From the IMG/VR virus record IMGVR_UViG_3300028840_006907, positions 256,001 to 320,000 of that record: a stretch of DNA of 64,000 bases; one strand, given 5' to 3'. Under the pieces are notes generated by a model. That model was not told the DNA's origin, made no database searches, and saw only the letters and a program-made list of their open reading frames with translations. Made by a program: the position numbers and the translations under genes. Positions 2,879-56,610 of this stretch are shown piece by piece; positions within the stretch are counted from its first letter, which is position 1; every line of letters starts with the position of its first letter. The DNA comes from a virus.

Positions 2879-2881
2879 TAA

Positions 2882-29865: not shown

Positions 29866-31947
29866 ATGAAACCAACAATTTCTCTTGTAATGGTAGTCTA
29901 TAATGTCAGTAAGACACTTGATAGATGTCTTAAAGGTTTTAGTCAGTGTTCGGATGAAATAGTAGTTGTTATAGATAATAAAACAACGGATAATAGTGAA
30001 GAAATTGCTCGAAAATATACCGATAAAATTTATCATTTCGATTGGATAGATGACTTTTCTGCCGCGAGAAATTTCTCTTTTGATAAGTGCACATGTGATT
30101 TTATCCACTGGTGCGATGGTGATGATTACATTCTTCCTGAAGATATAAAAATGATAAATGATCTAGATCTTACTGATTGGGATATGGTTGTTATGGATTA
30201 TGTCTATGCTCAGGATGAGTTTGGAAATGATAAATCGGTTGTCCCCAGAGAGAGAATTATAAGAAGATCTCTGGGATTGAAATGGGAGGGTGAAATACAT
30301 GAGTGTATTTTACTTCAAGGAAGAGTAAAACATACCCATATCCGAACTTATCATGATAAACAGCATGGGACTTCTGAACGTAATCTTGCCATATTAGAAA
30401 GAATTACTGAGAAAAATCCTAGTTCAAGAAATCTCTATTATCTCGGTAAAGAATATTATGATATGGGTAGAATTGATGAGGCAATTAATTATCTTTTGAA
30501 ATTTCTTGATTGTCCTGATGCCTTTTGGGAAAATGCTTATCAGGCTCATTGTAAATTGGCTATGGCTTATTTACAGAAAAAAGATGAGACTAGATTTAAA
30601 AAGCATATTTTTGAATCGATTAAGATGGAAGACCGTCAGGCAGAACCTATATATTTTCTCGCTTTATATTATATGAATAAAGGTCAATGGGATAGAGCTA
30701 TTCAGTGGTTTGAAGTATGTGCTCATATGGAGCATCCTGCAGATCTTCTAGGTGCTCATTTACCAGAATATTATACATGGTTACCTAATTTAAATCTTTG
30801 TGTTTGTTATAATGCTATTGGTGAAATTGAGAAAGCATACGAATGTAATGAAAAAGTTTTGAAATACCGTTCAAAAGATCCTCGTGCTGTCAGTAATAGA
30901 GAAATTCTTAAAAATGCTTTAAACTCAAAAAAGAAGAAAGAAGATGGTCAAGGTAAAAAACTGAATCTCGGTTGTGGTGGTAAACCTGTAGAGGGTTTTG
31001 TCAGTGTTGATATATTTAAAAGTCCCAAAATTGATGAAGTTTTTGATATGGGTGATATTCCGTATAAAGATAATACTATAGGAGCTATTTATAGTGAGCA
31101 TGCTTTAGAACATGTTTCTTTTGAACGAGTAGAAGAAGTTCTTAAAGAATGGTTTCGAGTTTTACAACCAGGGGGAGAACTTTTCCTTTATATGCCTGAT
31201 TTTGAAAATTGTTGTAAAAGTTATATAAATGCTCCGATTGACCATCCTCATTTTATGAATACTAAAGCTTGGTTTAAATATACTGTCTATGGAATTCAAA
31301 AGAGTCAGGGCGGGGAACCAGATGAAGCCCAGTTCCATCTTAGTGGCTTTTCAAAAGAGGAGATAAAAATAGTATTAGAACGGAATGGTTTTGTTATTGA
31401 TAAAGTAGAAAATTATGGTGGGGAAGGTCAGAAGCCTGATTATGGAACTCCTTCTATGGAAATCCATGCCCGAAAGCCTGAAGTAAAAAAGGAAATAATA
31501 CCTGTCAAGAAAGAGTCTGTGAAAGTGGTAGAGAAACCGAAACCTGTGAAAAAGGATTCGGGTATAAAGGTAGCCTGGATCGGGACTGAGAATTGGGTAG
31601 CTGCTCAGACAAGAATCAGAATATTAAATGTGCATCAATGGTTAAATGACCATGGTATAGAATCGGTGGTAACAAATAACTGCAAGGATGTAATCACGCA
31701 AGATTTTGATGTAGCCATTGTCGGAAAGAGATTTGATGAAGAAATTTATAATGGTGTCAAGGAATTGAAGAAGTCCAATAAAATAGTCTATTGCGATTTA
31801 TGTGAGGATGTTGTTAATTGGGCCTGGGTAAATGAGATAATGGTTGAATGTGATAAAGTTATCTGTTGTTCTAATACTCTTGCTGAGAGGGTGAAGCCAG
31901 TGAATCCTAATGTTGTAGTTATTGAAGATGCCTACGAGATGGTATAA
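29866..31947 (+). CDS. multidomain glycosyltransferase (GT2) / TPR-like / class I methyltransferase fusion
   Basis: 693 aa; N-terminal GT-A motifs (SLVMVVYN, DxD in WCDGDD); central SAM-methyltransferase motifs (LNLGCGGKP, LQPGGELFLYMPD). Confidence 0.65.
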   Translation: MKPTISLVMVVYNVSKTLDRCLKGFSQCSDEIVVVIDNKTTDNSEEIARKYTDKIYHFDWIDDFSAARNFSFDKCTCDFIHWCDGDDYILPEDIKMINDLDLTDWDMVVMDYVYAQDEFGNDKSVVPRERIIRRSLGLKWEGEIHECILLQGRVKHTHIRTYHDKQHGTSERNLAILERITEKNPSSRNLYYLGKEYYDMGRIDEAINYLLKFLDCPDAFWENAYQAHCKLAMAYLQKKDETRFKKHIFESIKMEDRQAEPIYFLALYYMNKGQWDRAIQWFEVCAHMEHPADLLGAHLPEYYTWLPNLNLCVCYNAIGEIEKAYECNEKVLKYRSKDPRAVSNREILKNALNSKKKKEDGQGKKLNLGCGGKPVEGFVSVDIFKSPKIDEVFDMGDIPYKDNTIGAIYSEHALEHVSFERVEEVLKEWFRVLQPGGELFLYMPDFENCCKSYINAPIDHPHFMNTKAWFKYTVYGIQKSQGGEPDEAQFHLSGFSKEEIKIVLERNGFVIDKVENYGGEGQKPDYGTPSMEIHARKPEVKKEIIPVKKESVKVVEKPKPVKKDSGIKVAWIGTENWVAAQTRIRILNVHQWLNDHGIESVVTNNCKDVITQDFDVAIVGKRFDEEIYNGVKELKKSNKIVYCDLCEDVVNWAWVNEIMVECDKVICCSNTLAERVKPVNPNVVVIEDAYEMV

Positions 31948-31956
31948 GGAGTACAA

Positions 31957-32706
31957 ATGGAAGTTAGGAAATTTGAAAATGTCCGAGAACTAATAGATAG
32001 TATGAATTCGGTCGGAAAAAGAATTTGGATTGGGGCTGATGATCCTAAAAATTTGACCTTAAGAGTAGTAGACGAAAATTTAGACTATGCTTTTGAGATA
32101 GGTATGTCTGATATGAAAGATACAGCACATTTATTAAATGCTCAAGAAATCGAAGTTTTCCGAAATAGCAAAGACCACTGGAGATTGGTGAAGGATGTCA
32201 AGATCACTGAGCATCAGAAATATCTAATTAGTCATTCTTATTTCAATGGTATGGCGGATTATTTGAGTAGAATTTACAGTCAAGAGTCGTACTTTAGTGA
32301 TTTACGGTTGAATGGTGAGATCAAGATATTAAAAGAAGGCGAATTACCTTTATACGATATTAATCCAGAAAAAGAAACCTATTGTTTTGGTGAGGATGGT
32401 GAAGAGTTAATAAAGGTTGGATTTAAAAACAGAGTATATGTCCCTCTTTTTGAGATAGCCCAATGTCCTTTAAAAAAGTATAACTCTGTATGGGATGTAA
32501 AGGTAGACGATTTTATTACCAATAATGATTTATTGGAATATGAGAACGATTTTTATGAAAGAATCGTAAAGGAGATAGGGACAAAAGTTAAGATAATTAT
32601 CCCTATAAGAACTCCTATAACTGTTTTACCAGTGACTAACTGGGTTAAAGGTGAATTTGGTTTTTCATCTTTTATTATTCTTGGGATCGGAGTATTTAAA
32701 CAGTGA
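31957..32706 (+). CDS. hypothetical protein
   Basis: 249 aa; RBS TAAGGAG. Confidence 0.55.
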   Translation: MEVRKFENVRELIDSMNSVGKRIWIGADDPKNLTLRVVDENLDYAFEIGMSDMKDTAHLLNAQEIEVFRNSKDHWRLVKDVKITEHQKYLISHSYFNGMADYLSRIYSQESYFSDLRLNGEIKILKEGELPLYDINPEKETYCFGEDGEELIKVGFKNRVYVPLFEIAQCPLKKYNSVWDVKVDDFITNNDLLEYENDFYERIVKEIGTKVKIIIPIRTPITVLPVTNWVKGEFGFSSFIILGIGVFKQ

Positions 32707-33434
32707 TTGATATTTTTATGACCACATGGTTTCGAGAAGAGTTCACACGTAAGTCTATTGAATTGATTCATGAAAGGACTAAACCTGGCACTTTCCAACT
32801 TCATATTTTTGATAATAACAGTGGCCCGAAGATGCGCGAGTATTTAATAGGGCTTTTAAAAAATAAGAAAATAGCATCATTACATCTTGATTCTCGGAAT
32901 ACCGGATGTCTTTATAATAAAGGTATTTTTCATATGATGGTGGAGGATTTTTGTAAATATTATATATGTACAGATAATGATGTCTATCCGCCTAAACTCT
33001 CTCCTGATTGGCTATCCCAGATGATTAAAATTATGGATGCTCATCCTGAACTAGCCTTTCTTGTCCCTCAGATACCCCCTCAGTGGCTTCAGGAACCTGA
33101 TCTTGCTAATTTAAAGGATGATATCGTTTATTGTAAAGCTGTTGGAAACACTTTTAAATTAGTTCGTAGAAAAGCGTTTCCTATATCAGAATTCCGTCCT
33201 GTACTAGGAGCATATGGTGATGATGCTCAGGTATGTGAACAGGTAAAATTACGAAATTATAAAGTAGCGTTTTGTCGGAATATTTTTTGTTATCATGCAG
33301 GACAATGTGAAAATTGGGGTTATAAAAAAGAAGAGATAGATTTGGATCCTCGTAAAGATGGTTACGGTAAACCGTTTAGCTATAAATTAATGAATGAAGA
33401 AACCTATGAACCTTTTCCGGAGAACAAAATATGA
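32703..33434 (+). CDS. putative glycosyltransferase (GT-A fold)
   Basis: 243 aa; GTG start overlapping upstream stop; GT2-like FDNNSG and TDNDV motifs. Confidence 0.45.
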   Translation: MIDIFMTTWFREEFTRKSIELIHERTKPGTFQLHIFDNNSGPKMREYLIGLLKNKKIASLHLDSRNTGCLYNKGIFHMMVEDFCKYYICTDNDVYPPKLSPDWLSQMIKIMDAHPELAFLVPQIPPQWLQEPDLANLKDDIVYCKAVGNTFKLVRRKAFPISEFRPVLGAYGDDAQVCEQVKLRNYKVAFCRNIFCYHAGQCENWGYKKEEIDLDPRKDGYGKPFSYKLMNEETYEPFPENKI

Positions 33435-33778
33435 AAAAGGCCACAGTAATAAGTCTGAGTGTAATAGTAGCTATTCTGGCAATAATTATTATAGTTACAA
33501 TAACTCATAACAGTGGAATAAATCTTACCAATCTTCATGTATCTGAAGATAAAAAAATTGAAGTAAATGAATGGGAACCTATAAAAACAGCCGGTGAAGA
33601 TGAACTAGTAAAAGTAGTTTGGGATCAGAAATATGGAGCTACGAAGACTGAGAATTGTAAAGTTGTATTTGAGAATAAGAAAAAGAAATTGTATAAATTA
33701 ATTGCCCCTGGTCTGGAAGTAGTAATAGAGCGTTCAAATATAAATGATATCTCATTTGAGATTATTAAAAAACAATAG
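33431..33778 (+). CDS. membrane-anchored hypothetical protein
   Basis: 115 aa; N-terminal hydrophobic anchor VISLSVIVAILAIIIIV; ATGA overlap with upstream gene. Confidence 0.55.
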   Translation: MKKATVISLSVIVAILAIIIIVTITHNSGINLTNLHVSEDKKIEVNEWEPIKTAGEDELVKVVWDQKYGATKTENCKVVFENKKKKLYKLIAPGLEVVIERSNINDISFEIIKKQ

Positions 33779-33844
33779 TGGTTCGAATAGATAGACCTAT
33801 ATATGGCACTATTCATTTAACTTTGATGTGTAAAGGAGATTGAA

Positions 33845-34657
33845 ATGAGTGAGTATATTCCTCAAATTTGTATTAGTGCTAGTGATCCTGTTAATTCGGT
33901 AAAAAGTCTACAGGGAAGTATTATAGGTATTCTATTTGAAAAAAAGGGTAAAGAAATTAAAAGTTCTATTTATGATAGACTCAAATCAATAGATAATAAA
34001 ATCAAAGAATATGAATCAGTATGTGGTAAGACTGAATCATTTGTGGAAGAGAAAGAGAAAGAACTAAAATCTTTAAAGGAATTTCATCAAACAAAAGAAG
34101 ACGAAAAAAAGGCTCTATTATTGCCTATTAAAAAGGAAATTGAAGAAAAAATAAAAAGAGCCAATGATATTACTTATGAATTTGATCTTAGTGTGTTTAA
34201 TGCAACAAAAGAGAAAGCGATTGAATTTGAAAAAGGTTTTGATGATATTAAAAATAAATTTGATGAGATAGATAATTTACTTATAAAAGATAGAGCTGTT
34301 ATTAAAGGTGCCAGAGGTATTCAGGGTTCAACAGGTCTTATGGGAGAAACGGGGATTCAGGGAGAACCTGTTCACGGTATAGGTTATGGAAGTGATGGTA
34401 ATATAGGAATAGGTACTGATAACCCTGATTCTATTCTTCATATGGGGACTGATCCAGGAGATAAAGCATATAGTAGATTAAATACACTTAATAATCTTTT
34501 AAAAAAATATATCAATAAACTGGAATCATTAAAAGAAGGTATTAATAGATTGAAAGAAGAAAAGAGACGTCTTCAATTAACCTATGATAATATTGATGAA
34601 TCCAGGGATTACAAATTAGATCTTAATATGTTGTCTGCTTTCGGTTTCGAAAAATAA
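33845..34657 (+). CDS. coiled-coil protein with short collagen-like (G-X-Y)7 segment
   Basis: 270 aa; RBS AAAGGAGA; GARGIQGSTGLMGETGIQGEP flanked by heptad-like K/E-rich sequence. Confidence 0.55.
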   Translation: MSEYIPQICISASDPVNSVKSLQGSIIGILFEKKGKEIKSSIYDRLKSIDNKIKEYESVCGKTESFVEEKEKELKSLKEFHQTKEDEKKALLLPIKKEIEEKIKRANDITYEFDLSVFNATKEKAIEFEKGFDDIKNKFDEIDNLLIKDRAVIKGARGIQGSTGLMGETGIQGEPVHGIGYGSDGNIGIGTDNPDSILHMGTDPGDKAYSRLNTLNNLLKKYINKLESLKEGINRLKEEKRRLQLTYDNIDESRDYKLDLNMLSAFGFEK

Positions 34658-34670
34658 CTGGAGGAATGTT

Positions 34671-35144
34671 ATGAAAATTGTAAAAGCAATGAAAAAAATT
34701 GCCCGGTTGAAAGGGGAAGTACGCGAATTAAAGAAACGCATGAGCCGTTGTTTAAATACCCTAGAAGATAATGAAGATTTTGTTGAATCCTATAAGGATT
34801 TAGAGAAAGAATTACTTCATAAAATTACGATGATTATAAATTTGAAAAGTATTATTATGAAAGCAAATATTGATAATAATATGTTTTCTGTTATTGTGAA
34901 TTTGGGTGAACTTAAGAGTTATATGGAATATTTAAAAGAACTTGAACCTAAATCGGGTTTTAATAGTTTAAATGATTATTCAGATAAAAATGCTGAATTT
35001 AAATCACAATTGACTATAAAAGAAAAGAATGATAAAATTTCTGAATGTCAAAAAGCTATTAATGATTTGACAGATCTATTGGACGATTTTAATGCTACAA
35101 CTAATGTAGAATTTACAGAAATAGATTTAAAATTATTTGAATAA
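34671..35144 (+). CDS. hypothetical coiled-coil protein
   Basis: 157 aa; RBS GGAGGAA. Confidence 0.55.
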   Translation: MKIVKAMKKIARLKGEVRELKKRMSRCLNTLEDNEDFVESYKDLEKELLHKITMIINLKSIIMKANIDNNMFSVIVNLGELKSYMEYLKELEPKSGFNSLNDYSDKNAEFKSQLTIKEKNDKISECQKAINDLTDLLDDFNATTNVEFTEIDLKLFE

Positions 35145-35149
35145 ATAAA

Positions 35150-35340
35150 AAGTGTAGTTGTCCGATGAATAGGTTATAATTTAGTTCAGTTCCGATTGAG
35201 CTTTTTTATAATTTATAAAAAATACATGGTATAAAGATATTGATATTTTCTTAATAATCGTCTTAGGTTTTACAAGTTTTTAGTTTTCAGTTGAGTCGAA
35301 TATCATTGTTCTTTTTTAGTTTTAGTTGACAACTACACTT
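35150..35340. repeat. 13-bp perfect inverted repeat pair flanking a 165-bp AT-rich segment
   Basis: AAGTGTAGTTGTC at 35150-35162 and its reverse complement GACAACTACACTT at 35328-35340. Confidence 0.7.
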
Positions 35341-35361
35341 CCTTTATTAGATAGGAATAAT

Positions 35362-35652
35362 ATGGGTAAACTTCATAAAGAACTTTTTAAAGGATTAAAA
35401 TGGGTCCTTATTGCTATACTTATTATAGCGTTTATGGTGGGAGCCTGGGTAGGGTTGGCATGGTCAATAGGTTGGTTTGTAAATAGATTTTTTGATTTAC
35501 AAAATTTCAGCCCTGAGAGTTACATTTCATTCGGATCTATTATGCTGGTCTTTAATCTAATATTACAAATAATAACTGTAATTATCACCGTATGGGCTCT
35601 TCTTGCCTGGGGAAAATCCCGAGGAATGAATAATTTAAAGGGGGTCAAGTGA
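35362..35652 (+). CDS. small membrane protein (two TM helices)
   Basis: Start at ATG (track TTG start at 35326); hydrophobic LIAILIIAFMVGAWVGLAW and LVFNLILQIITVIITVWALLAW. Confidence 0.5.
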   Translation: MGKLHKELFKGLKWVLIAILIIAFMVGAWVGLAWSIGWFVNRFFDLQNFSPESYISFGSIMLVFNLILQIITVIITVWALLAWGKSRGMNNLKGVK

Positions 35653-36134
35653 ATCGTACAATAGAGATTGATGCTGAATTTTTTGAGCACCTTTTAAATT
35701 GTATGGCAAATCAGAAGTATATCGGATCCCAATTACCTGAAAAAGCTGCCGAGAAACAAAAGATTATTGATGAGGCATGGCGAAAAGGTATGGATATATT
35801 AAATCCTATCGTTAAAACGAAAGATAAAGCAGAGGATGCTTTAAAAAAATTCAATAAGAAACTTCATAAAGATCTCCCCCTTATTACAAAAAAGATAAAA
35901 GATGTAATGGATGACAATAAATATCCAAAGGATTATGTCACTGAATATGCTATGAAGTGGACTTCTGTAAGACAAGATTGTGAGATGTATTGTCTTATAG
36001 CAGAATCGGTAGATAAAGAAGAATTCGAAAAGTTATGTGAAGACAGAAGTTATACCCGGAATATGAGAGATTATATCATAGAGGTTTTAAAACATGTAGG
36101 GTTAGGAGATAATCTTGAACTGGGACATGAATAG
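35649..36134 (+). CDS. hypothetical protein
   Basis: 161 aa; GTG start after AAGGGGG, overlapping upstream stop. Confidence 0.5.
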   Translation: MNRTIEIDAEFFEHLLNCMANQKYIGSQLPEKAAEKQKIIDEAWRKGMDILNPIVKTKDKAEDALKKFNKKLHKDLPLITKKIKDVMDDNKYPKDYVTEYAMKWTSVRQDCEMYCLIAESVDKEEFEKLCEDRSYTRNMRDYIIEVLKHVGLGDNLELGHE

Positions 36135-36315
36135 GTTTGAAAGATGGTTTTTAAAACGGCTTTGTAGAAAGATAGTGACACAGGGTGATCATAAGAGGCG
36201 TATTATTGAACATTATAAAATATTAATGGAAGCTGCAAAAGAAGAATTTACAGAAGAAAATAAGTATGGTCTTGATAGTTTCATGCAAGAATGTTTTGAA
36301 AAAGCACTTAAATAG
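36127..36315 (+). CDS. small hypothetical protein
   Basis: 62 aa from ATG (track TTG start at 36115); overlaps upstream gene end. Confidence 0.35.
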   Translation: MNRFERWFLKRLCRKIVTQGDHKRRIIEHYKILMEAAKEEFTEENKYGLDSFMQECFEKALK

Positions 36316-36335
36316 TAAAGGAAGATAATTGAAAT

Positions 36336-39320
36336 ATGGCAGAGCAATTAAAAGTTGGATGGGTCGGATATGGGGGTAATAGTTGGATGGCTGAGGATCT
36401 TCGGCCAGTTATAGAAAAGCTAGGAATGACTTTATTCACGATTCATGAACATGATAACGCAGATATTAAATGGGAAAAGGATAACTGGTTCAATCATTTA
36501 AAAAAAGCTGATATAGTTATAGCTCCAGCTAATTATAAAAAACAACCTGCAAAGAGTGCAAATCGATTAATACAATCAATGTCAATGGGTAAACCTGTCA
36601 TATGTTCTCCTTTACCTGCATATTTAGATGTGGCTAAAAAACATCCTGGTTCATTTCTTCTAGCTGATGTCCCGGAAGAATGGGAGGAATGTTTAAAATT
36701 GCTTAGAGATAATCCTTCTTTTCGTAAACAGATGAGTGAGAAGGCTCTAGAAGCTGTTGAAGATTTTTCGATAAATGTCATAGGAAATAAGTGGCTAGAA
36801 TTATTAGAGAAAGATGTACCAATAAAAAAAGATACTGAATCGAATAAAGTTCTTATTACAGATATAATCATACCTACATATAAAAATCTTCGTGGCTTGA
36901 AGTTATGTATTGAGAGTATTCTGGAGTGTACGTTAGTGCCGTACAATATTATAATTGTAAATAATGGAACTGATGAGGAATTGCATAACTATTGTTCTCA
37001 ATTGGTAAATGTAACTTACATAAAAAAAGACAGACTTAATTTTGCCCAAGCCATGAATGTCGGGATTAAAGCAGGTGATTCTGATTTAGTCGTTCTATTA
37101 AATGATGATGTTATTGTCAGTAAAGGATGGCTTATGAATTTGAAATATGCCTGTACTGAAGATGTGGGTGCAGTAGGACCTTTAAGTAATTGTGATAAAT
37201 CCTGGCTCCATAATCATGATATCAATATTGGTGGAGTAGAATTACTGCCTGGTTCAAATACTTTTGAACAAATTGAGCCTATTATTTCTCAGATATATAA
37301 TTATGAATCTCCTTTTTTAGAAGAACCTGAACGAAAATGGGTTGCATTTTATGCTACTTTAATTCCTCGGTCAGTAATAGAAGAAGTAGGTTTTTTAGAT
37401 GAGTCCTTTACAAATTCGGGAGAGGATGTTGATTATTGTAACAGGATTATGAAGTTAGGGTATAAAATAAAACAGACCTATAAAAGTTTTGTATTTCATT
37501 TCGGAGCTGTAAGTAGGAAATTACTGGAGCAGGAAGATAAGGGCACTTATCAGAAAGCTGATGAGGAGACTCAAGAATATTTAAAGATCAAGTATTCAAA
37601 ACCAACAGTAATAATCTATTCCGGTGCCAGTTGGGAGAGATGGAGTTATAAGTCTCTTGAACAGGGGGGTATTGGTGGTAGTGAAGTTTGGCAGATAAAT
37701 GTTTGTCGTGAGTTAAATAAATTGGGTTATAGAGTAATCAGTTTTAATGATTCCCCGGAAAAGGAAATGTGGGAAGATGGGATTCAATATCTTCATTATG
37801 GAGAATTTTCGAAATGGTGTGATGGTAACTATGCCGATTACGCAATTATAAGTAGAACAACCGATCCTTTACATCATCCTTTAAGAGCTGGAAAAATATT
37901 TATAATGGTTCACGATGTCTGGTTACTTTCTGCTAGAGATCAATTATTCCTTGATAAAGTAGATAAATTTTGTGTACTTAGTAAATGGCATTGGGATTTT
38001 TTTAAAGGTCACCATGGAATCCAAGATGAATCAAAATTGGCGTTGACTTCTAATGGGATAGATTTTAATCGTTATGATAACAAAAATATTGAAAGACATC
38101 CTTATAAAATGTTTTACAGTTCTTCCCCGGATCGAGGTCTTGATACACTCCTTTACCTATTTCCCTTTATTAAGGAAAAAATTCCAGAACTTGAACTCCA
38201 TATTTATTATGGATTTAACAATTGGGAAAAGGCAGTGAAGATGAGAAAAAACCAGATTGAGATAGATAGAATGAATAAAATAAAAAAGGATATGGAACAA
38301 CCTGGGGTATTTTATCATGGCCGAGTTGGTCAGAAGGAGCTAGCTGAAGCGCAATTAGAATGTTCTCTTTGGGCCTATCCGACGGATTTTGAAGAAGTTT
38401 TTTGCATCACTGCTATTGAGGCTCAAAGAGCCAGAATCCCTGTATTAGCAACGAATTACGCTGCTTTACAGACAACAGTAGGTGACTCAGGAATTCTAAT
38501 AGGAAATGGCATGAAAGGAGAATCTTATACACGAGATTATCGATTAAAATTTGTAGATGAGTGTATAAAAGTTTTAACAGATAAAGAATATAGAGAACAC
38601 TGGATTGAGAAAGGTTTAAAAAATACGGAGAAATATTCTTGGGAACAAGTGGCTAAAAATTGGAAGAAATTGTTTGAAAAAAGTGATCAAAAAGTAGAAG
38701 CAAAAATTATAGATGAAAAAGAATACAAGAAAGATCGAGTGCTAGTTCATGAAATGAAAATAAGTTCTAATTATATGCCAGATCCTCACAGCCATTTAAA
38801 TAATGAGAGAGATCGTTTTCATTATTATAAAACACTTAATGCTTTCGTTTCATCAAATTCATGTAGTGCATTGGATGTGGGTTGTTTTGATGGGTGGATT
38901 GATTTTCTTCTTATAGAACAAGGATTTAAATTAACTGGAGTTGAGTTGATGGAACCTCTTGTTCAAGCTGCTCGAAAATATGCAGAAGTTAAACAACTTG
39001 ATTATACAATTTATCAGGGTTTTTTTGAAGAGATTGAGATAGACCAGAAATTTGATTTAGTGATATGTTTGGAGACTTTGGAACATATTGATTTAAAACT
39101 TGTCCCTGAGTATATACAAAAAATGAAAAGTCTTGCTACAAAGGGTCTTTTCATATCACTCCCGGATCAGAAACATGAAGATAATACCCAGCATTTATGG
39201 ACACCTACTGAAAATTTAATAAGAAAAATGTGGGGTAATAAAAAGAATTTTTCATTGGAATACCATACTTATCAGGATTCAAATTTACCCGCTAATTGGT
39301 TAATTTATTTCGAAGTGTAG
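36336..39320 (+). CDS. giant multidomain glycosyltransferase (GT2 + GT4-like) / methyltransferase fusion
   Basis: 994 aa; GT-A segment (ITDIIIPTYKN...IIIVNNG), GT-B/GT4-like segment (EVFCITAIEAQRARIPVLAT), C-terminal class I methyltransferase motifs (ALDVGCFDGW, LETLEHI). Confidence 0.65.
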   Translation: MAEQLKVGWVGYGGNSWMAEDLRPVIEKLGMTLFTIHEHDNADIKWEKDNWFNHLKKADIVIAPANYKKQPAKSANRLIQSMSMGKPVICSPLPAYLDVAKKHPGSFLLADVPEEWEECLKLLRDNPSFRKQMSEKALEAVEDFSINVIGNKWLELLEKDVPIKKDTESNKVLITDIIIPTYKNLRGLKLCIESILECTLVPYNIIIVNNGTDEELHNYCSQLVNVTYIKKDRLNFAQAMNVGIKAGDSDLVVLLNDDVIVSKGWLMNLKYACTEDVGAVGPLSNCDKSWLHNHDINIGGVELLPGSNTFEQIEPIISQIYNYESPFLEEPERKWVAFYATLIPRSVIEEVGFLDESFTNSGEDVDYCNRIMKLGYKIKQTYKSFVFHFGAVSRKLLEQEDKGTYQKADEETQEYLKIKYSKPTVIIYSGASWERWSYKSLEQGGIGGSEVWQINVCRELNKLGYRVISFNDSPEKEMWEDGIQYLHYGEFSKWCDGNYADYAIISRTTDPLHHPLRAGKIFIMVHDVWLLSARDQLFLDKVDKFCVLSKWHWDFFKGHHGIQDESKLALTSNGIDFNRYDNKNIERHPYKMFYSSSPDRGLDTLLYLFPFIKEKIPELELHIYYGFNNWEKAVKMRKNQIEIDRMNKIKKDMEQPGVFYHGRVGQKELAEAQLECSLWAYPTDFEEVFCITAIEAQRARIPVLATNYAALQTTVGDSGILIGNGMKGESYTRDYRLKFVDECIKVLTDKEYREHWIEKGLKNTEKYSWEQVAKNWKKLFEKSDQKVEAKIIDEKEYKKDRVLVHEMKISSNYMPDPHSHLNNERDRFHYYKTLNAFVSSNSCSALDVGCFDGWIDFLLIEQGFKLTGVELMEPLVQAARKYAEVKQLDYTIYQGFFEEIEIDQKFDLVICLETLEHIDLKLVPEYIQKMKSLATKGLFISLPDQKHEDNTQHLWTPTENLIRKMWGNKKNFSLEYHTYQDSNLPANWLIYFEV

Positions 39321-40930: not shown

Positions 40931-42280
40931 ATGGAACAAAAATTATCGGTTATAGGATTAGGTAAATTGGGCTGTACAATGATGGTATGTTTTGCTCATA
41001 AAGGATGGGAAGTTATAGGGGTTGATGTTAATGAATTAACTATTGAAACTATTCTACGAGGTCGGAGTCCTATCGATGAACCTTTTGTAGAAGAGATGAT
41101 AAGTGATAATGCAGAAAGGATAAGAGTAACATCTGATTGTGAAAATGCTGTTTTAAATAGTGATGTAAGTTTTGTAATAGTTCCTACTCCCAGTAAGGAA
41201 GATGGGTCTTTTTCGACAGAATATGTTGAAAATGCTACAATGGAAGTTGCGAAAGCTTTGACAAAAAAGAACTCTTATCATTTAATTGTAATTACTTCTA
41301 CTGTTCTTCCTGGAGACAGTCTTCGAATTTCTTATGAGATTGCTCGGGAGTCAGGGAAAGAACTAGGAAAGGATTTCGGTGTTGTTTATAATCCTGATTT
41401 CATAGCACTCGGTAAAATTGTCAGCGATTTTTTAAACCCTGACATGATCCTTATCGGTGAGTACGATGAGAAGTCAGGAGATATCATTCAAGACATACAC
41501 CTGAAACTTATAGATAGTAATCCTACTTTTCATAGGATGAATTTCTTTAATGCTGAACTGGCGAAAATTTCTCTTAATGCCTACTGTACTTTGAAAATTA
41601 CTTTTGCGAACATAATCGCGGAGATATGTGAGAATTTACCTGGCGGTGATTCTAATAAAGTCTTAAGTGCTGTAGGAGCTGATAGTCGGGTGGGTCAAAA
41701 ATATCTCAAAGGTGGTTTGGGGTACAGCGGACCATGTTTTCCGCGTGATAATCGAGCCCTCGCCCATTCTGCAAGGTTCTTTGGCACTACAAATTATTTC
41801 TGTGAGATGACAGATGCAATAAACAACTATCATAAAACAGAAAGAATATGCAATCTTTTATTGGGGTACATGGAAGAAAAGAACACAAAAGAATTAGCTA
41901 TACTTGGTTTATCCTATAAGGAAGATACTCCTGTGATTGAAGAATCTGTATCTATTTCAGTTATAAAAACTCTTTGGGAAAAAGGAATGAATATAAAAGT
42001 TTTTGATCCGGTTGCTATGGAAAATGCAAAAAGAGAATTAGAAGGTTATGATAATATTTATTATGCCTCTTCTGAATATGATTGTATAGATGGTACTTCC
42101 GTTTGTTTTATAGCTACTCCTTGGAAACAGTTCTTTAGTTTGAATCATCAAGAAGTAATAAAAAGAATGAAAAAGAGTTCTATTATTCTTGACTCATGGG
42201 GAGTATTACCTTATGACAGAGCAACTAATAGAGGCAAAAAAGTAGAGGTAAAACAACTAGGGAAAAATTATCAATCGTAA
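40931..42280 (+). CDS. UDP-sugar 6-dehydrogenase family protein (UDP-glucose/UDP-ManNAc dehydrogenase-like)
   Basis: 449 aa; N-terminal Rossmann GLGKLG; catalytic-Cys region GGLGYSGPCFPRD. Confidence 0.75.
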   Translation: MEQKLSVIGLGKLGCTMMVCFAHKGWEVIGVDVNELTIETILRGRSPIDEPFVEEMISDNAERIRVTSDCENAVLNSDVSFVIVPTPSKEDGSFSTEYVENATMEVAKALTKKNSYHLIVITSTVLPGDSLRISYEIARESGKELGKDFGVVYNPDFIALGKIVSDFLNPDMILIGEYDEKSGDIIQDIHLKLIDSNPTFHRMNFFNAELAKISLNAYCTLKITFANIIAEICENLPGGDSNKVLSAVGADSRVGQKYLKGGLGYSGPCFPRDNRALAHSARFFGTTNYFCEMTDAINNYHKTERICNLLLGYMEEKNTKELAILGLSYKEDTPVIEESVSISVIKTLWEKGMNIKVFDPVAMENAKRELEGYDNIYYASSEYDCIDGTSVCFIATPWKQFFSLNHQEVIKRMKKSSIILDSWGVLPYDRATNRGKKVEVKQLGKNYQS

Positions 42281-42342
42281 AAATTAGATATAAGAAGTCT
42301 CATTGAGACTATTCAATAAAATAATAAATAGGAATAAAAAAG

Positions 42343-43146
42343 ATGCCGAGATTAAGCTTTATTGTCACTGGACGAAATGACAATTATGACCAAAATTTTA
42401 ATGAACGTTTAACCATCGCTTTAAGAAGAAATATAAAATCCCTTCCAGACGCTGAATTCATTTTTGTAGAATGGAATCCTTATTTAGACCGCCCATTAAC
42501 ATGTTCAAAATTAAAAAGGACTTTTGGAGATCGAGTTAAATATTATGTAGTTCATCCTAAATATCATAAATATTATTGTAACATTGATGGTTTTCTTGAA
42601 TACCCTCCAAAAAATATCGGAATACGTAAGGCTACAGGTGAATTTATTATTTGTACAAATTCAGATGTAATTTTTTGTCCAGATCTAGTTCATTGTATGA
42701 ATATGCATTTGGAAAAAAATGTCCTTTATCGTGCTACTCGAATTGATATCCGACCAGATTATCTTAATGTAAGTTTCCCCCTTCATCCAAAATTTAAGCT
42801 TGAAACAAATCAAGGTCCTATGAATGCAGCGGGTGATTTTCTTTTAATGCATCGGGATCTATGGTATAAAACTACTGGTTATTGCGAGGAATACCCGTGG
42901 CAGAGATTACATAAAGATGCTCAGATAGTTTATTTGCTTTCTAATAAAAGAGGGTATGAAGTTCGAAACATAGGATCTATGACACATTGGAGACATCCTA
43001 GCTCCTGGTCTAATGGAAAATGTCGAGCTAGAGTAGGTGATGTGAATTGGGATTTTCAAAAATGTAATTACAAAATGAATAAAAAAACATGGGGTCTCAC
43101 GTTTACAGATGAGGTCGAAAAAGACGGCATAATTTGGCTAATTTAA
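42343..43146 (+). CDS. putative glycosyltransferase (GT-A fold)
   Basis: 267 aa; GT2-like NIGIRKATGEFIICTNSDVIF. Confidence 0.4.
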   Translation: MPRLSFIVTGRNDNYDQNFNERLTIALRRNIKSLPDAEFIFVEWNPYLDRPLTCSKLKRTFGDRVKYYVVHPKYHKYYCNIDGFLEYPPKNIGIRKATGEFIICTNSDVIFCPDLVHCMNMHLEKNVLYRATRIDIRPDYLNVSFPLHPKFKLETNQGPMNAAGDFLLMHRDLWYKTTGYCEEYPWQRLHKDAQIVYLLSNKRGYEVRNIGSMTHWRHPSSWSNGKCRARVGDVNWDFQKCNYKMNKKTWGLTFTDEVEKDGIIWLI

Positions 43147-43176
43147 ATTTACATATAGATATTGAAAGGAGATTGT

Positions 43177-44151
43177 ATGAAACGTATATTGGTTACTGGA
43201 GCAGGCGGTTTTATTGGAGGCCATTTAGTCACTCGATTGAAAGAGGAGGGCTATTGGGTTCGTGGAGTTGATATTAAAGAGCATGAATATAAGAAGACTG
43301 ATGCAGATGAATTTTATCTTAAAGATTTGAGAATAATGCAAAATTGTCTTACTTCATGCGCTGATATTGATGAATGTTATACATTAGCTGCTGACATGGG
43401 TGGTGCAGGATTTGTTTTTACTGGTGAGAATGATGCTGATATCATGCATAATTCTGCGAAGATAAATTTAAATATGGCTGAAGCTTGCCGAATACAAGGA
43501 GTAAAGAAGATATTTTATTCCTCTTCAGCGTGCATGTATCCTGCTCATAATCAAACCGATCCGGATAATCCTTTACTTTCTGAGGATTCTGCTTATCCTG
43601 CAGCTCCCGATAGTGAATACGGGTGGGAAAAACTTTTCTCAGAACATCTTTATTTAGCTTATAACAAAAATTATGGACTGGATGTTCGTGTGGCAAGATT
43701 TCATAATATTTTTGGAGTTTTGGGAACATGGCAAGGTGGAAGAGAAAAAGCTCCTGCTGCATTGAATCGTAAAGTAGCTATGGCTAAAGATGGTGATGTA
43801 ATCGAAGTGTGGGGACCTGGTACTCAAACACGTTCTTTCCTTTATATAGAGGAATGTATTGAAGCAGTACGTCGTTTCATGGAATCAGATTTTTTAGGCC
43901 CTGTAAATATAGGTTCTGAAGAAATGATTTCAATAAACGATCTTGCGAAAATGGCCATAGATATTAGTGGTAAAAAACTTACTATCAAAAATGTGGAAGG
44001 TCCTGTAGGAGTTATGGGCCGTAATTCAGATAATAATTTATATGAAGAAAAGGTTGGATGGAGACCTTCAAAACCTTTACATTATGGTATGGAAAAGACT
44101 TATGCTTGGATAAGTGATCAAATTAAACAAATTTATCCCTTTAGAAAATAG
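43177..44151 (+). CDS. NAD-dependent nucleotide-sugar epimerase/dehydratase (SDR family)
   Basis: Start at ATG with AAAGGAG RBS (track TTG start at 43162); VTGAGGFIGGHL; YGWEK (YxxxK). Confidence 0.75.
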   Translation: MKRILVTGAGGFIGGHLVTRLKEEGYWVRGVDIKEHEYKKTDADEFYLKDLRIMQNCLTSCADIDECYTLAADMGGAGFVFTGENDADIMHNSAKINLNMAEACRIQGVKKIFYSSSACMYPAHNQTDPDNPLLSEDSAYPAAPDSEYGWEKLFSEHLYLAYNKNYGLDVRVARFHNIFGVLGTWQGGREKAPAALNRKVAMAKDGDVIEVWGPGTQTRSFLYIEECIEAVRRFMESDFLGPVNIGSEEMISINDLAKMAIDISGKKLTIKNVEGPVGVMGRNSDNNLYEEKVGWRPSKPLHYGMEKTYAWISDQIKQIYPFRK

Positions 44152-44154
44152 CTT

Positions 44155-44856
44155 ATGGAATTAATAACAAAAGCAGTTATAATGGCTGGTGGAGAGGGTA
44201 CTCGGTTAAGACCTTATACAGAAATGACTCCTAAAGCAATGTTAGAGGTTAACGGTATTCCTCTCTTACGTTTAATGATAGAGAGACTTCATAGTTTTGG
44301 TATAACTCATTTCTATTTAAGTGTAAATTATCTCTCGAAAGTAATCTGTGATTATTTCGGTGATGGATCTAAATTTGGGATTAATATCACTTATATAAAA
44401 GAACCTTATTCGATGGGGACCGCAGGTTCAATTAGTATGGTTGATATTGAAGAACCTTTTTTGGTTATAAATGGAGATGTTTATACCAGTCTTGATTTTA
44501 GAGATCTCTTTGTAGAATTTAGAAGATCTAAATCAGATCTATTAATATGTTGTAGGGAGCAATTATTAAAAACAGATTATGGTGTTATTGTAAAAGAAGA
44601 TGACAGGATAACTTCCTGGGTTGAAAAACCTGAGTTTACTCATTACATAAGTTGTGGTATCTATGTATTCAAACCAGAGATTGTAAAATATATACCTAAA
44701 GAACATTTTTTTAATATGAATCATTTAGCTGAAGCGGTTATTGAAAAGAATAAAAAAGCTGGATTTTATTTAATGGATGATCTAGATATCTGGATTGATA
44801 TAGGAACTATTGAAGAATATAATAAGGTCAAGGAATTGTTAACAGTAAAAAAATAA
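44155..44856 (+). CDS. sugar-phosphate nucleotidyltransferase
   Basis: 233 aa; AVIMAGGEGTRLRPYT motif. Confidence 0.75.
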   Translation: MELITKAVIMAGGEGTRLRPYTEMTPKAMLEVNGIPLLRLMIERLHSFGITHFYLSVNYLSKVICDYFGDGSKFGINITYIKEPYSMGTAGSISMVDIEEPFLVINGDVYTSLDFRDLFVEFRRSKSDLLICCREQLLKTDYGVIVKEDDRITSWVEKPEFTHYISCGIYVFKPEIVKYIPKEHFFNMNHLAEAVIEKNKKAGFYLMDDLDIWIDIGTIEEYNKVKELLTVKK

Positions 44857-44865
44857 GAGGATAAA

Positions 44866-45759
44866 GTGAGAGTTGTATTTATTGGTTGCGTCAATTTCAG
44901 TAAAGCAATGTTGGAATATGCTTTAGAAATAGAGTGCCTTGAAATAGTGGGTATCGTGACAAAATCAGAATCCAATTTTAATACAGATTTCTGTTCTTTG
45001 GCCCCTTTAGCCCAGGAACATAATATTTCTTATCTTTTATACGATCAATTAAAATCGGAAAGTGGACTCAATAGTTGGGTTGAATTAAAATTTCCTGATG
45101 TGATCTTTTGTTTTGGTTGGTCCCATTTATTAAAAGCTGAACTTATAGAAATTCCTAAAATAGGAGTCATAGGACATCATCCTACAATGCTTCCTAAGAA
45201 TAGAGGGCGACATCCAGTAATATGGGCGTTAGCTTTAGGATTGGAGTATACTGCTTCAACTTTTTTCTTTATAGATCCTGGGGTGGATTCTGGGGATATT
45301 CTAGATCAAATCCCTGTAAATATAAATTTTGATGATGATGCTAGTATTCTCTATCAGAAGATCACAGTGACTGCAGGAAAGCAATTAAAAACATTTTCTC
45401 CTCTTTTGGAGAAAGGAGAATATATAGTTGTTAAACAAGATATGAGTAAAGCTACATGGTGGAGAAAAAGGTCAAAAGCTGATGGATATATTGATTGGCG
45501 TATGAGTTGTTTTTCCATTCATAATTTAGTCCGGGCTTTGACTTGTCCTTATGTAGGGGCTCATTGTGAATTTAACAATAGGGATATAAAGATCTGGAAA
45601 GTTAGAATAATGTATAAAGGATTAGATGATATTGAACCAGGTAAAATAATCGATTTAAATAGAAATAAAAATGAAATCTATATAAAGTGCGGGGATGGAG
45701 TTATGTGTATCTATGATCATGAATTTGATCCTCTGCCTGAGATCGGAACTTATTTATGA
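44866..45759 (+). CDS. sugar N-formyltransferase (formyl_trans_N family)
   Basis: 297 aa; GTG start after AGAGGA; HPTMLPKNRGRHP matches HxSLLPxxRG; C-terminal domain as in Fmt-like enzymes. Confidence 0.65.
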   Translation: MRVVFIGCVNFSKAMLEYALEIECLEIVGIVTKSESNFNTDFCSLAPLAQEHNISYLLYDQLKSESGLNSWVELKFPDVIFCFGWSHLLKAELIEIPKIGVIGHHPTMLPKNRGRHPVIWALALGLEYTASTFFFIDPGVDSGDILDQIPVNINFDDDASILYQKITVTAGKQLKTFSPLLEKGEYIVVKQDMSKATWWRKRSKADGYIDWRMSCFSIHNLVRALTCPYVGAHCEFNNRDIKIWKVRIMYKGLDDIEPGKIIDLNRNKNEIYIKCGDGVMCIYDHEFDPLPEIGTYL

Positions 45760-46415
45760 AAATTATTGCCATTGCACCTCATCCTGATGATGAGACTCTG
45801 GGATGTGGTGGTACACTCTTGAAGCATCGGGATGCCTCAGATGATATTTATTTGGTTCTTGTTACTACAGCAGGTTCTGAATACAGTGAAGAGCATATCA
45901 ATAATAAATACAAAGAAATAGATAATGCCAACGAGATTTTTGAATTTAAGACTATCTTCGATTTGGGTTTCCCTGTTACTCATATTGGTTCTATAGATAT
46001 ATCAGAAATAATTGGTAAACTAATGGACACATTTAAATTAGTGGGTCCCGATATTATTTATGTTCCTTTCCCGTATGATATTCATACTGATCATCAAGTT
46101 GTTTTTGATGCGGTTTCTTCGTGTACAAAATGGTTCAGAATACCTACTTTGAAAAGAATACTAGCCTATGAAACTATATCTGAAACAGATTTTATTATTA
46201 GACCCGGTCCTTCTTTTATCCCTAATGTTTTTGTCAATATTGAAGATCACATTGATAAAAAGATAGAGGCTATGAAATGCTATGCTAGTGAAATTGCTAT
46301 GCCTCCTTTTCCTCGTAGTGAGGAGAATATCAGAGCCCTGGCAACATTAAGAGGTTCAACATCTGGTTTCAAAGCTGCGGAAGCTTTCATGTTGTTAAAG
46401 GAGATAGATGAATGA
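45756..46415 (+). CDS. PIG-L/LmbE family deacetylase
   Basis: 219 aa; AIAPHPDDETLGCGGT motif; ATGA overlap with upstream gene. Confidence 0.7.
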   Translation: MKIIAIAPHPDDETLGCGGTLLKHRDASDDIYLVLVTTAGSEYSEEHINNKYKEIDNANEIFEFKTIFDLGFPVTHIGSIDISEIIGKLMDTFKLVGPDIIYVPFPYDIHTDHQVVFDAVSSCTKWFRIPTLKRILAYETISETDFIIRPGPSFIPNVFVNIEDHIDKKIEAMKCYASEIAMPPFPRSEENIRALATLRGSTSGFKAAEAFMLLKEIDE

Positions 46416-47380
46416 GTAAAAAAGTTTTAGTTACTGGTGCAGGAGGATTTATAGGATCTCATTTAGTAAAACGGCTCATGGAATATGGGTATGATGTTAC
46501 AGCACTGGTAAAATATAATGCAAATGGTTCTTGGGGCTGGTTAGACACATTTCATCGTTCTGTAATCAAAGATATTAGAGTAGAGTTGGGTGATGTTCGG
46601 GATCCGGAACAAATGATGAGATATAAAAACATGGATATTATTTTCCATTTAGCTGCTTTGATAGGTATCCCTTATTCCTATGTAGCTCCTCGTTCATATG
46701 TCGATACCAATATAAACGGTACTTTAAACATGCTTCAGGTTTGTCGGGAAAATGGAGCTACTTATATTCATACATCAACTTCTGAGGTATATGGTACAGC
46801 CCTTTATGAACCTATTGATGAAAAACATCCTATCCAAACACAGAGTCCATATTCAGCTACAAAAAGTGCTGGAGATAGTTTAGCAAAGAGTTATTATCTT
46901 TCCTTCGATTTGCCCGTTATTATAGTAAGACCATTCAATACTTTTGGAACACGTCAATCTTTAAGAGCTGTTATTCCCACTATTATCAGTCAGGCATGTA
47001 AAGATGATGTTATAAAACTTGGAGATCCAAGTACCATGAGAGATTTCATTTTTGTGGATGATACTGTAGAAGGCTTTATAAAGGCCGCTGAGAGGGGAAA
47101 ATCTGGAGAGACTTATAATATAGGTTATGGCAAAAAAAGGTCAATAAGAAGTATTGTGGATGACGTAGGCAATATATTAGGTAAAGTTTTAAAAATTGAA
47201 TCGGAACCAGAGAGAATGCGACCTCCGAAGAGTGAGGTAAGAGTTCTTGTTTGTAATAATGAAAAAGCAAAAAAAGAATTGGGATGGGATATTAAATGGC
47301 CTTTTAAAAAAGGGTTGGAATATTTGATCTACGATTGGCAACGAGAAAACAAAGAAAGTAAAGATTTTTATCATGTCTAG
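46412..47380 (+). CDS. NAD-dependent nucleotide-sugar epimerase/dehydratase (SDR family)
   Basis: 322 aa; VTGAGGFIGSHL; YSATK (YxxxK). Confidence 0.75.
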   Translation: MSKKVLVTGAGGFIGSHLVKRLMEYGYDVTALVKYNANGSWGWLDTFHRSVIKDIRVELGDVRDPEQMMRYKNMDIIFHLAALIGIPYSYVAPRSYVDTNINGTLNMLQVCRENGATYIHTSTSEVYGTALYEPIDEKHPIQTQSPYSATKSAGDSLAKSYYLSFDLPVIIVRPFNTFGTRQSLRAVIPTIISQACKDDVIKLGDPSTMRDFIFVDDTVEGFIKAAERGKSGETYNIGYGKKRSIRSIVDDVGNILGKVLKIESEPERMRPPKSEVRVLVCNNEKAKKELGWDIKWPFKKGLEYLIYDWQRENKESKDFYHV

Positions 47381-49141: not shown

Positions 49142-49155
49142 TAGGAGGACGAAGT

Positions 49156-51052: not shown

Positions 51053-51055
51053 AAT

Positions 51056-53158: not shown

Positions 53159-53161
53159 TAA

Positions 53162-54443: not shown

Positions 54444-54444
54444 T

Positions 54445-56570: not shown

Positions 56571-56571
56571 T

Positions 56572-56610
56572 AGGGGTAAAGAAGTTTCTCTACCCCTACA
56601 TGCACATTTT
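56572..56610 (+). terminator. candidate terminator hairpin
   Basis: 7-bp stem AGGGGTA/TACCCCT with 12-nt loop, T-run shortly downstream; weak. Confidence 0.3.

Follow-up and report, generated by a model that had tools for sequence, protein, structure and literature searches.

A putative protein-glycosylation system of huge phages: two multi-domain glycosyltransferase-methyltransferase proteins that divide one predicted GT-B fold between them

Very few cases of phage virion glycosylation are known, and the enzymes behind them are poorly mapped. A close counterpart of the system considered here is found in C. difficile, where SgtA, a protein of 358 aa with a GT-A glycosyltransferase domain (aa 1-260) and four tetratricopeptide repeats (TPRs), is encoded immediately upstream of bclA3 and adds the initiating beta-O-linked N-acetylglucosamine to Thr residues of the BclA3 collagen repeats in vitro (PMC7157674). 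Among viruses, mycobacteriophages reportedly carry O-glycans on C-terminal extensions of their capsid and tail-tube proteins, added by phage-encoded enzymes (Freeman et al. 2023, as summarized in PMC12619734), and reports on giant eukaryotic viruses include the chlorovirus PBCV-1 protein A111/114R with three glycosyltransferase (GT) functions as well as collagen and fibril glycosylation in mimivirus (PMC7826918, PMC10117803, PMC9614988). Here we analyse a window of 64,000 nucleotides (positions 256,001 to 320,000 of the IMG/VR virus record IMGVR_UViG_3300028840_006907), which, as its sequence relationships show, comes from a huge phage, a relative of Bacillus phage G, and which encodes two very large proteins, open reading frame (ORF) A of 693 aa and ORF-B of 994 aa.

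We found that ORF-A and ORF-B, which an initial annotation of this DNA had presented as two separate giants, are with high confidence one functional system, and that the end of the first and the start of the second correspond to the two halves of a single GT-B fold. The initial annotation held up in its description of both ORFs, of a GT-A domain and a class I S-adenosylmethionine (SAM) methyltransferase in each of them (all above curated Pfam cut-offs and with their characteristic motifs), and of a GT4-like E-x7-E segment in the larger one. Its domain list was correct as far as it went and missed two domains, residues 565-690 of ORF-A and residues 1-165 of ORF-B, which are the two halves in question (Table 1).

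We regard the domain architecture of both proteins as practically certain. For ORF-A, an AlphaFold2 (AF2) model (predicted local distance difference test, pLDDT, 90.2) delimits the four domains at the residues given in Table 1, with a disordered linker (residues 542-561) preceding the terminal Rossmann-type domain. The GT-A domain matches Glycos_transf_2 (PF00535) at residues 6-136 with 63.8 bits against a cut-off of 23.3 (E-value 2.4e-17), and D84, D86 and D87 of its DxD motif are invariant among 54 homologues. Several TPR families of Pfam, all above their curated cut-offs, cover residues 170-340, a region that is all-helical in the model. The methyltransferase matches Methyltransf_11 (PF08241; 39 bits against a cut-off of 21.2, E-value 1.3e-9) and the methyltransferase family phrog_6636, G369 and G371 of its motif I are conserved in at least 90% of the 54 homologues, and a Foldseek search confirmed the fold by returning SAM methyltransferases that include the sugar O-methyltransferase RebM.

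In ORF-B, the second GT-A domain matches PF00535 at residues 177-270 (54.5 bits against 23.3, E-value 1.7e-14) and PF13641 (3e-12); its residues N256/D258 and E363/D364/D366 are invariant among 44 homologues, and its sequence match in the PDB is chondroitin synthase (2e-7). The GT4 domain is supported by Glycos_transf_1 (PF00534) at residues 598-761 (62.1 bits against 26.4, E-value 6.2e-17) and by phrog_2170 (2.2e-21). Its motif reads E687-VFCITAI-E695; among the same 44 homologues E687 never varies and E695 is kept in at least 90%. The C-terminal methyltransferase (Methyltransf_25, PF13649, residues 846-935, 40.4 bits against 27; motif I LDVGCFDG) is missing from most ORF-B homologues, which are about 770 aa long (78% coverage), while a homologous domain is internal in protein P0112 (31% identity, E-value 3e-28) and a weakly similar one is N-terminal in P0028 (28% identity, E-value 5e-7); we therefore call this fusion lineage-specific but recurrent. 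A stand-alone methyltransferase encoded after the ORF-B homologue of locus L005 was considered as the source of the fused domain and rejected, the similarity being marginal (E-value 0.001 over 59 residues).

The two domains missed so far belong together. All ORF-A homologues end in VIEDAYE, and all ORF-B homologues start with LKVxWxGYGG. Residues 565-690 of ORF-A align to residues ~545-680 of P0117, a natural fusion of both proteins, and residues 1-165 of ORF-B to its residues 697-860; about 16 residues join the two segments in such fusions. Both halves are likewise spanned by P0241, a stand-alone protein of 300 aa from a related 590-kb phage, whose residues 4-135 match the ORF-A C-terminus (E-value 1.5e-9) and whose residues 147-298 match the ORF-B N-terminus (37% identity, E-value 8e-35); about 35 stand-alone compact GT-B proteins of ~300 aa were found. 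With an alignment of natural fusions, stand-alone forms and separate halves as input, AF2 predicts the fused segment of P0117, modelled as a single chain in place of the window pair, to be one GT-B fold of two Rossmann domains (pLDDT 94.9, predicted template modelling score 0.91). This model resembles full-length GT4 enzymes (PimB', BshA, a methylmannose-polysaccharide mannosyltransferase and GtfC/Gtf3; template modelling scores 0.73-0.76, E-values about 1e-12), of which GtfC/Gtf3 are adhesin glycosyltransferases. The family profile also matches the GT4 enzymes BshA, PglA, TarM and PimA with E-values of 1.8e-7 and weaker. Because the fusion is modelled as one GT-B, and because the window halves are homologous to the fused and stand-alone forms, the gene boundary in the lineage of the window cuts one predicted GT-B fold in two.

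Split GT-B enzymes are known from yeast (Alg13/Alg14) and streptococci (Cps14F/Cps14G), and their N-half and C-half polypeptides must associate. ORF-A and ORF-B resemble these pairs in dividing one GT-B fold between two polypeptides. They differ from Alg13/Alg14 in that the halves are terminal domains of large multi-enzyme proteins, so that the split fold would also dock the two proteins to each other. In addition, ORF-A and ORF-B have no Alg13/Alg14 match in Pfam, the nearest relatives of the compact GT-B are GT4 enzymes, and it exists as a single chain in the stand-alone proteins and fused relatives. From the co-occurrence and fusions of the two proteins, the split fold and the parallel with Alg13/Alg14 we infer that the two halves re-associate and thereby dock ORF-A to ORF-B, a reading by analogy in which we place moderate confidence.

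The genomic evidence that the two proteins form one system is extensive. Metagenomic homologues number 433 for ORF-A and 424 for ORF-B (45-78% identity, on contigs of up to 590 kb). The ORFs are not frameshift fusions, as the whole ORF-A architecture is retained at ~100% coverage in more than 100 homologues and the exact 994-aa ORF-B protein is present on at least 7 contigs. Homologues of both proteins occur together on contigs: their genes are adjacent in locus L003, and 1-4 genes or 1-2.5 kb apart in L002, L005, L010, L013 and others. Single-ORF fusions of 1344-1529 codons exist in L006 (P0117, 1478 aa), L020, L027, L028, L031 and L036, while the break-point lies elsewhere in L014 and the domain order is permuted in L015. 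Methyltransferase domains are found at three different positions among the relatives, and smaller phages carry a minimal adjacent pair, GT-A with TPR plus GT4. In viral contigs, a search with the single ORF-A sequence gave no loci, which were retrieved by an alignment-based query. No hit was returned when the 9.5-kb region was compared by megablast with 50,697 deposited phage records, and tblastn of both proteins against the same records gave partial local matches with about 33% identity at most.

Inteins provide a further sign that both proteins are under selection. Eight ORF-B homologues (P0012, P0019, P0025, P0033, P0064, P0088, P0094 and P0095) carry inteins of ~370-410 aa at residue 690, inside the GT4 E-x7-E motif (F|CITAIE), and four ORF-A homologues (P0128, P0130, P0136 and P0147) carry inteins beside the DxD motif (at ~residues 83-103, near HW-CDGDD, as placed by BLAST boundaries). 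Conserved catalytic sites are typical intein targets, and we count this placement as a sign of selection on the pair. To our knowledge, inteins are unusual in glycosyltransferases.

Some related records deserve mention. In L007 (IMGVR_UViG_3300029288_006769, 424,144 bp, viral in IMG/VR) the genes of the pair seem to be broken up when read with code 11, and recoding or inserted elements may be the cause. The record of P0239 at NCBI is labelled 'MAG: Candidatus Nanoarchaeia archaeon'; here a contig of a huge phage was probably placed in an archaeal bin. Downstream of the ORF-A homologue in L004, a 512-kb relative, positions 16284-22070 encode GT29 sialyltransferase-like and DAHP/Kdo8P-synthase-like proteins, a CMP-transferase, a SPASM-domain protein and methyltransferases, so that this locus is equipped there with another set of glycan genes.

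The initial annotation had read the fusions as an assembly line for a methylated oligosaccharide. Coupled transfer and methylation fits the fusions and the domain shuffling seen among relatives. The product, on the other hand, is probably a glycan built on a protein and not a free oligosaccharide, given the type of the GT-A and TPR module of ORF-A together with its genomic link to collagen-like proteins with (G-x-T)n repeats. In the PDB, the ORF-A GT-A sequence matches Listeria GmaR (4.5e-18) and SunS (1e-12). SunS and ThuS account for the six best fold matches of the GT-A and TPR region (E-values 6e-19 to 1e-15), at 16-22% identity in the structural alignment and with a root-mean-square deviation of 3.2 Å over 286 columns for 7msp. 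The next matches are the TPR-bearing protein glycosyltransferases SPY and OGT and the wall-teichoic-acid glycosyltransferase TarP. As the top matches glycosylate peptides or proteins directly, the module is of the SunS/ThuS/GmaR/SgtA kind. Like ORF-A, the enzymes SunS, ThuS and GmaR have helical repeats behind the GT-A domain, and these repeats deal with the peptide or protein acceptor; unlike ORF-A, all three enzymes have a single function, the transfer of one sugar, and their target is a bacteriocin Cys or flagellin.

A methylated oligo- or polysaccharide without a protein link, either as a polymethylated polysaccharide free in the cytoplasm or as a modification of host envelope glycans that alters the cell surface during infection, would suit the alternating glycosyltransferase and methyltransferase domains. 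It would also suit the methylmannose-polysaccharide mannosyltransferase 7qsg among the fold matches of the compact GT-B, the resemblance of the ORF-B GT-A domain to polymerising enzymes such as chondroitin synthase, and the three small membrane proteins encoded nearby (two between ORF-A and ORF-B, one upstream at 27333-27764). Against such a product, we found no membrane segment in ORF-A, ORF-B or any sugar enzyme between 25 and 58 kb of the window, and Pfam scans of this region revealed no flippase, polymerase, GT-C enzyme or initiating lipid-carrier transferase, which fits a cytoplasmic protein acceptor. Moreover, the initiating module has a TPR domain and its best matches are peptide and protein glycosyltransferases, and a product of this type would leave the association with collagen-like genes unexplained. 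We therefore consider it quite improbable and are reasonably, if not strongly, confident that the acceptor is a protein.

This association is best seen in bacteria. Among 185,579 species genomes, the best relatives of ORF-A (33-38% identity, over residues 4-350 only) are all from Bacillota, of the genera Clostridium, Paenibacillus, Sporomusa, Desulfosporosinus and Bacillus. Runs of (G-x-T)n with at least 10 triplets are present in 50 of their 80 loci, at a median distance of 0.6 kb, and in 26 of the 38 loci that have complete flanks. The gene of Sporomusa aerivorans has genes for collagen-like proteins of 1592 and 912 aa on either side, and the smaller protein has a non-repeat C-terminal domain that is BclA-like by eye. 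A GmaR-like role in flagellin glycosylation was considered for the ORF-A relatives and rejected, since the 8-10 kb around the gene contain nothing resembling flagellin in 80 bacterial and 85 viral loci, a negative result that is only moderately strong.

In phages, a collagen-like run lies within 10 kb in 13 of the 20 loci that carry the full ORF-A/ORF-B system, compared with 11 of 63 loci with the GT-A and TPR module only (Fisher p 1e-4, a value that overstates the support as phage lineages are not independent). The collagen-like ORFs of the full-system loci have Gln or Thr at the Y position, and one of them, longer than 2814 aa, has as many as 820 triplets. On the phage contig of the window itself (L167, positions 1618-8832), a collagen-like ORF of 2404 aa ends 514 nt before window position 1; globular domains interrupt its 421 Gly-X-Y triplets, in which Y is Gln 183 times and Thr 178 times. 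The ORF preceding it is also collagen-like. We thus tentatively name a collagen-like protein as the acceptor, at slightly less than an even chance.

The parallel with SgtA and BclA3 lies in the GT-A and TPR layout of ORF-A and its relatives, in the position of the bacterial relatives' genes beside BclA-like (G-x-T)n genes, and in the (G-x-Q/G-x-T)n proteins encoded by the phage. Unlike SgtA, the ORF-A module continues into a methyltransferase and one half of a GT-B, and would have a partner protein with three or four domains of its own. Unlike BclA3, the phage repeats alternate Gln and Thr at Y, and the product would be a virion rather than a spore.

We propose that ORF-A and ORF-B are two subunits of a multi-enzyme protein-glycosylation machine conserved in a clade of huge phages related to phage G. 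ORF-A would initiate the glycan: its TPR domain, which presumably binds the acceptor protein, would present Ser or Thr residues to the GT-A domain for attachment of the first sugar. The compact GT-B, the second GT-A domain of ORF-B and the ORF-B GT4 domain could then extend the chain, and the two SAM methyltransferase domains could methylate its sugars. The GT-B fold, with its N-half at the end of ORF-A and its C-half at the start of ORF-B, would hold both proteins together, and sugar donors would come from a 17-kb gene island immediately downstream. The likeliest acceptors would be Thr residues of virion fibre proteins with (G-x-Q/G-x-T)n repeats, such as the 2404-aa protein and a small protein with seven triplets encoded between ORF-A and ORF-B, and the outcome may be a coat of glycosylated fibres, comparable to the nap that BclA forms on spores. 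For this combined reading, a soluble cytoplasmic machine that O-glycosylates collagen-like virion fibres, with split-fold docking and donors from the island, we see the chances as evenly balanced. A bolder version, in which the huge phages of this clade bear a nap of giant collagen-like glycoprotein fibres made wholly by phage enzymes, with ancestry shared with BclA/SgtA and mega-enzymes clamped by a split fold, is conceivable and rather doubtful.

Several observations weigh against our proposal. The compact GT-B lacks E-x7-E and has P-A-K73-S74-x-N-x-x-T-Q80 instead (ORF-B numbering; K73 and S74 invariant, Q80 at least 90% conserved in the 44 homologues). It may for this reason be a purely structural docking module and not an enzyme, or may be catalytic in a different way. 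GT-B halves are often in loose contact, and a split fold by itself need not yield a stable heterodimer. In L004 there is no ORF-B homologue within 10 kb of ORF-A. The giant collagen-like gene lies ~30 kb from ORF-A, the only collagen-like stretch within the window has 7 triplets, and 7 of the 20 full-system phage loci have no collagen-like run within 10 kb. Finally, the comparison with SgtA is made at the level of its published domain layout.

The same machine could also act on ordinary virion proteins (capsid, decoration, tail tube or the LamG fibre), as in mycobacteriophages. The loci without a nearby collagen-like gene speak for such acceptors, and so do the position of the glycosylation cluster ~8 kb after the head module, the distant relationship of the head protein to that of cluster C mycobacteriophages such as Myrna (29% identity), the reported glycans on mycobacteriophage capsid and tail-tube C-termini, and a Ser/Thr content of 21-22% in the LamG proteins at 656-6959. 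The two systems would have in common the cytoplasmic glycosylation of virion proteins by phage-encoded enzymes and a distantly shared capsid family. The major head protein of the window (20565-21437), however, has no Ser/Thr-rich C-terminal extension of the mycobacteriophage kind, and its Ser/Thr content never exceeds 15% across 40 consecutive residues. Moreover, the genes of the module's closest cellular relatives adjoin collagen-like genes and not other substrates, and collagen-like genes are enriched at the full-system phage loci. We regard ordinary virion acceptors as unlikely.

As in the giant eukaryotic viruses named above, our proposal would involve virus-encoded, host-independent glycosylation of virion proteins, multi-domain GT (and methyltransferase) polypeptides and virus-encoded synthesis of rare sugars. 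The glycans of those viruses are N-linked or hydroxylysine-linked, whereas ORF-A and ORF-B would use an SgtA-like initiator and a split GT-B. Chlorovirus A064R combines two glycosyltransferase domains with a methyltransferase.

The 17-kb island downstream of ORF-B presumably supplies the donors. It encodes, according to Pfam and NCBIfam, a UDP-glucose dehydrogenase, epimerases and dehydratases, a nucleotidyltransferase, an ArnA-like formyltransferase and a PIG-L deacetylase, besides three methyltransferases, acetyltransferases and a sulfotransferase. All its NCBIfam matches are below the curated cut-offs, so that products are assigned by type only. Within it, positions 46412-51718 hold a complete-looking nonulosonic acid pathway with a LegB-like dehydratase, a LegC-like aminotransferase, a NeuB/PseI-like synthase, a PseG-like hydrolase and a PseF-like cytidylyltransferase. 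The sulfotransferase (53730-54443; PF00685, E-value 1e-22) and the ArnA/Fmt-like formyltransferase (44866-45759) suggest sulfated and N-formylated sugars. A 302-aa ORF at 50144-51052 was considered as a stand-alone compact GT-B; it showed no similarity to this family and is PseG-like instead.

The gene content of the region also bears on the idea that the glycosyltransferases hypermodify the phage DNA, in the form of glycosylated hydroxymethyl-pyrimidines, and thereby evade restriction. Phage glycosyltransferases are reported to do so with diverse glycans (bioRxiv 10.1101/2023.12.21.572611), and a thymidylate kinase gene directly follows ORF-B (39546-40247; PF02223 in the gene table). Yet no hydroxymethylase, TET-like dioxygenase or base methyltransferase was found among the Pfam- and PHROG-scanned ORFs of these 64 kb of a ~470-kb genome. 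A TPR domain, sugar methyltransferases, a nonulosonic acid pathway and a sulfotransferase are ill-suited to DNA modification, and the best structural relatives are peptide glycosyltransferases. This function is highly improbable.

The families of the individual domains, and the O-glycosylation of collagen repeats by a GT-A and TPR enzyme (SgtA/BclA3), are known already. New are the phage setting, the distribution of seven or eight domains over two proteins of one putative machine, and a predicted GT-B fold split at a gene boundary. In the literature we found no description of the ORF-A/ORF-B system, nor of collagen-like proteins together with glycosyltransferases in jumbo or huge phages. The pair represents a widespread and unstudied system. 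The proposal leads to a prediction that is easy to test, namely that Thr in G-x-T collagen repeats serves as the acceptor, for instance in (GIQGETGVQGTT)n peptides. It would tie phage fibre biology to the glycoproteins of spore surfaces, and a split fold that joins two multi-enzyme proteins would be a natural example relevant to the engineering of glyco-assembly lines; if true, such a clamp would be a docking principle not described for these assembly lines. A glycan coat, if it exists, would bear on adsorption, protease resistance and evasion of recognition in huge phages.

Table 1. Features of the window, with positions in nucleotides from its first letter
Feature	Position	Strand	Basis
LamG-domain virion/fibre proteins	42..6959	+	PHROG virion structural matches; Laminin_G_3 in L167 gene table
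ORF-A, 693 aa, ATG start: GT-A + TPR + SAM methyltransferase + N-half of compact GT-B	29866..31947	+	ORF call, Pfam, AF2
ORF-A residues 1-165, GT-A (GT2) catalytic domain, DxD D84/D86/D87 (nt 30115-30126)	29866..30360	+	PF00535, PDB matches
ORF-A residues 171-356, TPR domain	30376..30933	+	TPR Pfam families, AF2 helices
ORF-A residues 360-537, class I SAM methyltransferase, motif I LNLGCGG	30943..31476	+	PF08241, phrog_6636, Foldseek
ORF-A residues 565-690, N-terminal Rossmann half of predicted split compact GT-B	31558..31935	+	Alignment to P0117 and P0241
249-aa protein directly after ORF-A	31957..32706	+	Same position in L004 (46% identity)
243-aa GT-A-like protein	32703..33434	+	Weak PF00535, E-value 5.8e-4, below cut-off; L004 (73%), L002 (57%)
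115-aa protein, N-terminal membrane anchor	33431..33778	+	Hydrophobic segment, residues 1-19; no family match in Pfam
270-aa K/E-rich protein with 7-triplet collagen-like insert	33845..34657	+	Sequence, GXY scan
157-aa K/E-rich protein	34671..35144	+	Sequence; homologue in L003 (52% identity)
108-aa protein, two membrane segments	35326..35652	+	Hydrophobic segments
ORF-B, 994 aa, ATG start: C-half of compact GT-B + GT-A + GT4 + SAM methyltransferase	36336..39320	+	ORF call, Pfam
ORF-B residues 1-165, C-terminal Rossmann half of predicted split compact GT-B	36336..36830	+	Alignments, GT4 profile matches, weak PF13524
ORF-B residues 175-415, second GT-A (GT2) domain	36858..37580	+	PF00535, PF13641, invariants
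ORF-B residues 425-785, GT4 (GT-B) domain with E-x7-E (E687...E695, nt 38394-38420)	37608..38690	+	PF00534, phrog_2170
ORF-B residues 825-994, second class I SAM methyltransferase	38808..39317	+	PF13649 4.9e-10, PF13847 1e-9
Sugar-nucleotide and glycan-tailoring island, 17 kb	40931..57480	+	Pfam; NCBIfam below cut-off

The assignment of the window to a huge phage related to phage G is based on its head-module proteins, the relatives of the head protein and the large contigs that carry the exact proteins. In a PHROG scan, the major head protein matched phrog_2522 (E-value 3.5e-53), and a portal-like protein, a head protease and virion structural proteins were also found. Identity to the head proteins of other phages amounts to 77% for an uncultured phage of 485 kb, 50% for Tunturiibacter phage Tunturi_5 (309 kb) and 40% for Bacillus phage G (498 kb). 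The exact ORF-A and ORF-B proteins recur on contigs that measure 388,651 bp and as much as 469,617 bp. The window has a GC content of ~33%, and coding is almost entirely on the + strand until ~57.5 kb. The LamG proteins at its start come after the giant collagen-like gene.

Between ORF-A and ORF-B, the membrane proteins and the collagen-like insert named in the initial annotation are present, and its coiled-coil label falls on the two neighbouring proteins that are K/E-rich by sequence. The insert consists of seven Gly-X-Y triplets (GARGIQGSTGLMGETGIQGEP, nt 34307-34369) in the G-x-Q/G-x-T style of the giant collagen-like proteins, and looks like a small echo of the 2404-aa protein; the homologue in L004 has 9 triplets (50% identity). 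The 270-aa protein is a candidate small fibre and a possible acceptor. The 249-aa protein had no match in Pfam and PHROG scans, and the 243-aa protein is possibly a further glycosyltransferase. L002 and L005 encode homologues of the 108-aa membrane protein directly before ORF-B, and L004 has one in its syntenic region (49-54% identity).

Upstream of ORF-A, positions 27809-28537 encode a 242-aa protein with a HExxH-like motif (HEVSHAFD) and a faint Peptidase_M91 match, which is kept close upstream of the ORF-A homologues in L002, L004 and L005 (45-65% identity). Directly upstream of ORF-A, an HNH/endonuclease VII-like protein with an internally duplicated module is encoded at 28608-29783 and has a homologue at the equivalent position in L002. 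In the head module, the portal-like ORF (11131-14484, 1117 aa) has portal matches restricted to residues 81-190 and 697-1009, as well as intein, homing-endonuclease and LAGLIDADG matches in Pfam; an intein probably interrupts this portal gene. Between the protease and head genes (19102-19935) lies the gene of a very acidic protein, probably a scaffold, with EK-rich repeats in tandem. Near the end of the window, the - strand carries a cluster (59859-63513) with a fragment similar to a thiamine pyrophosphate (TPP)-dependent E1 component, a radical SAM protein and proteins of unknown type.

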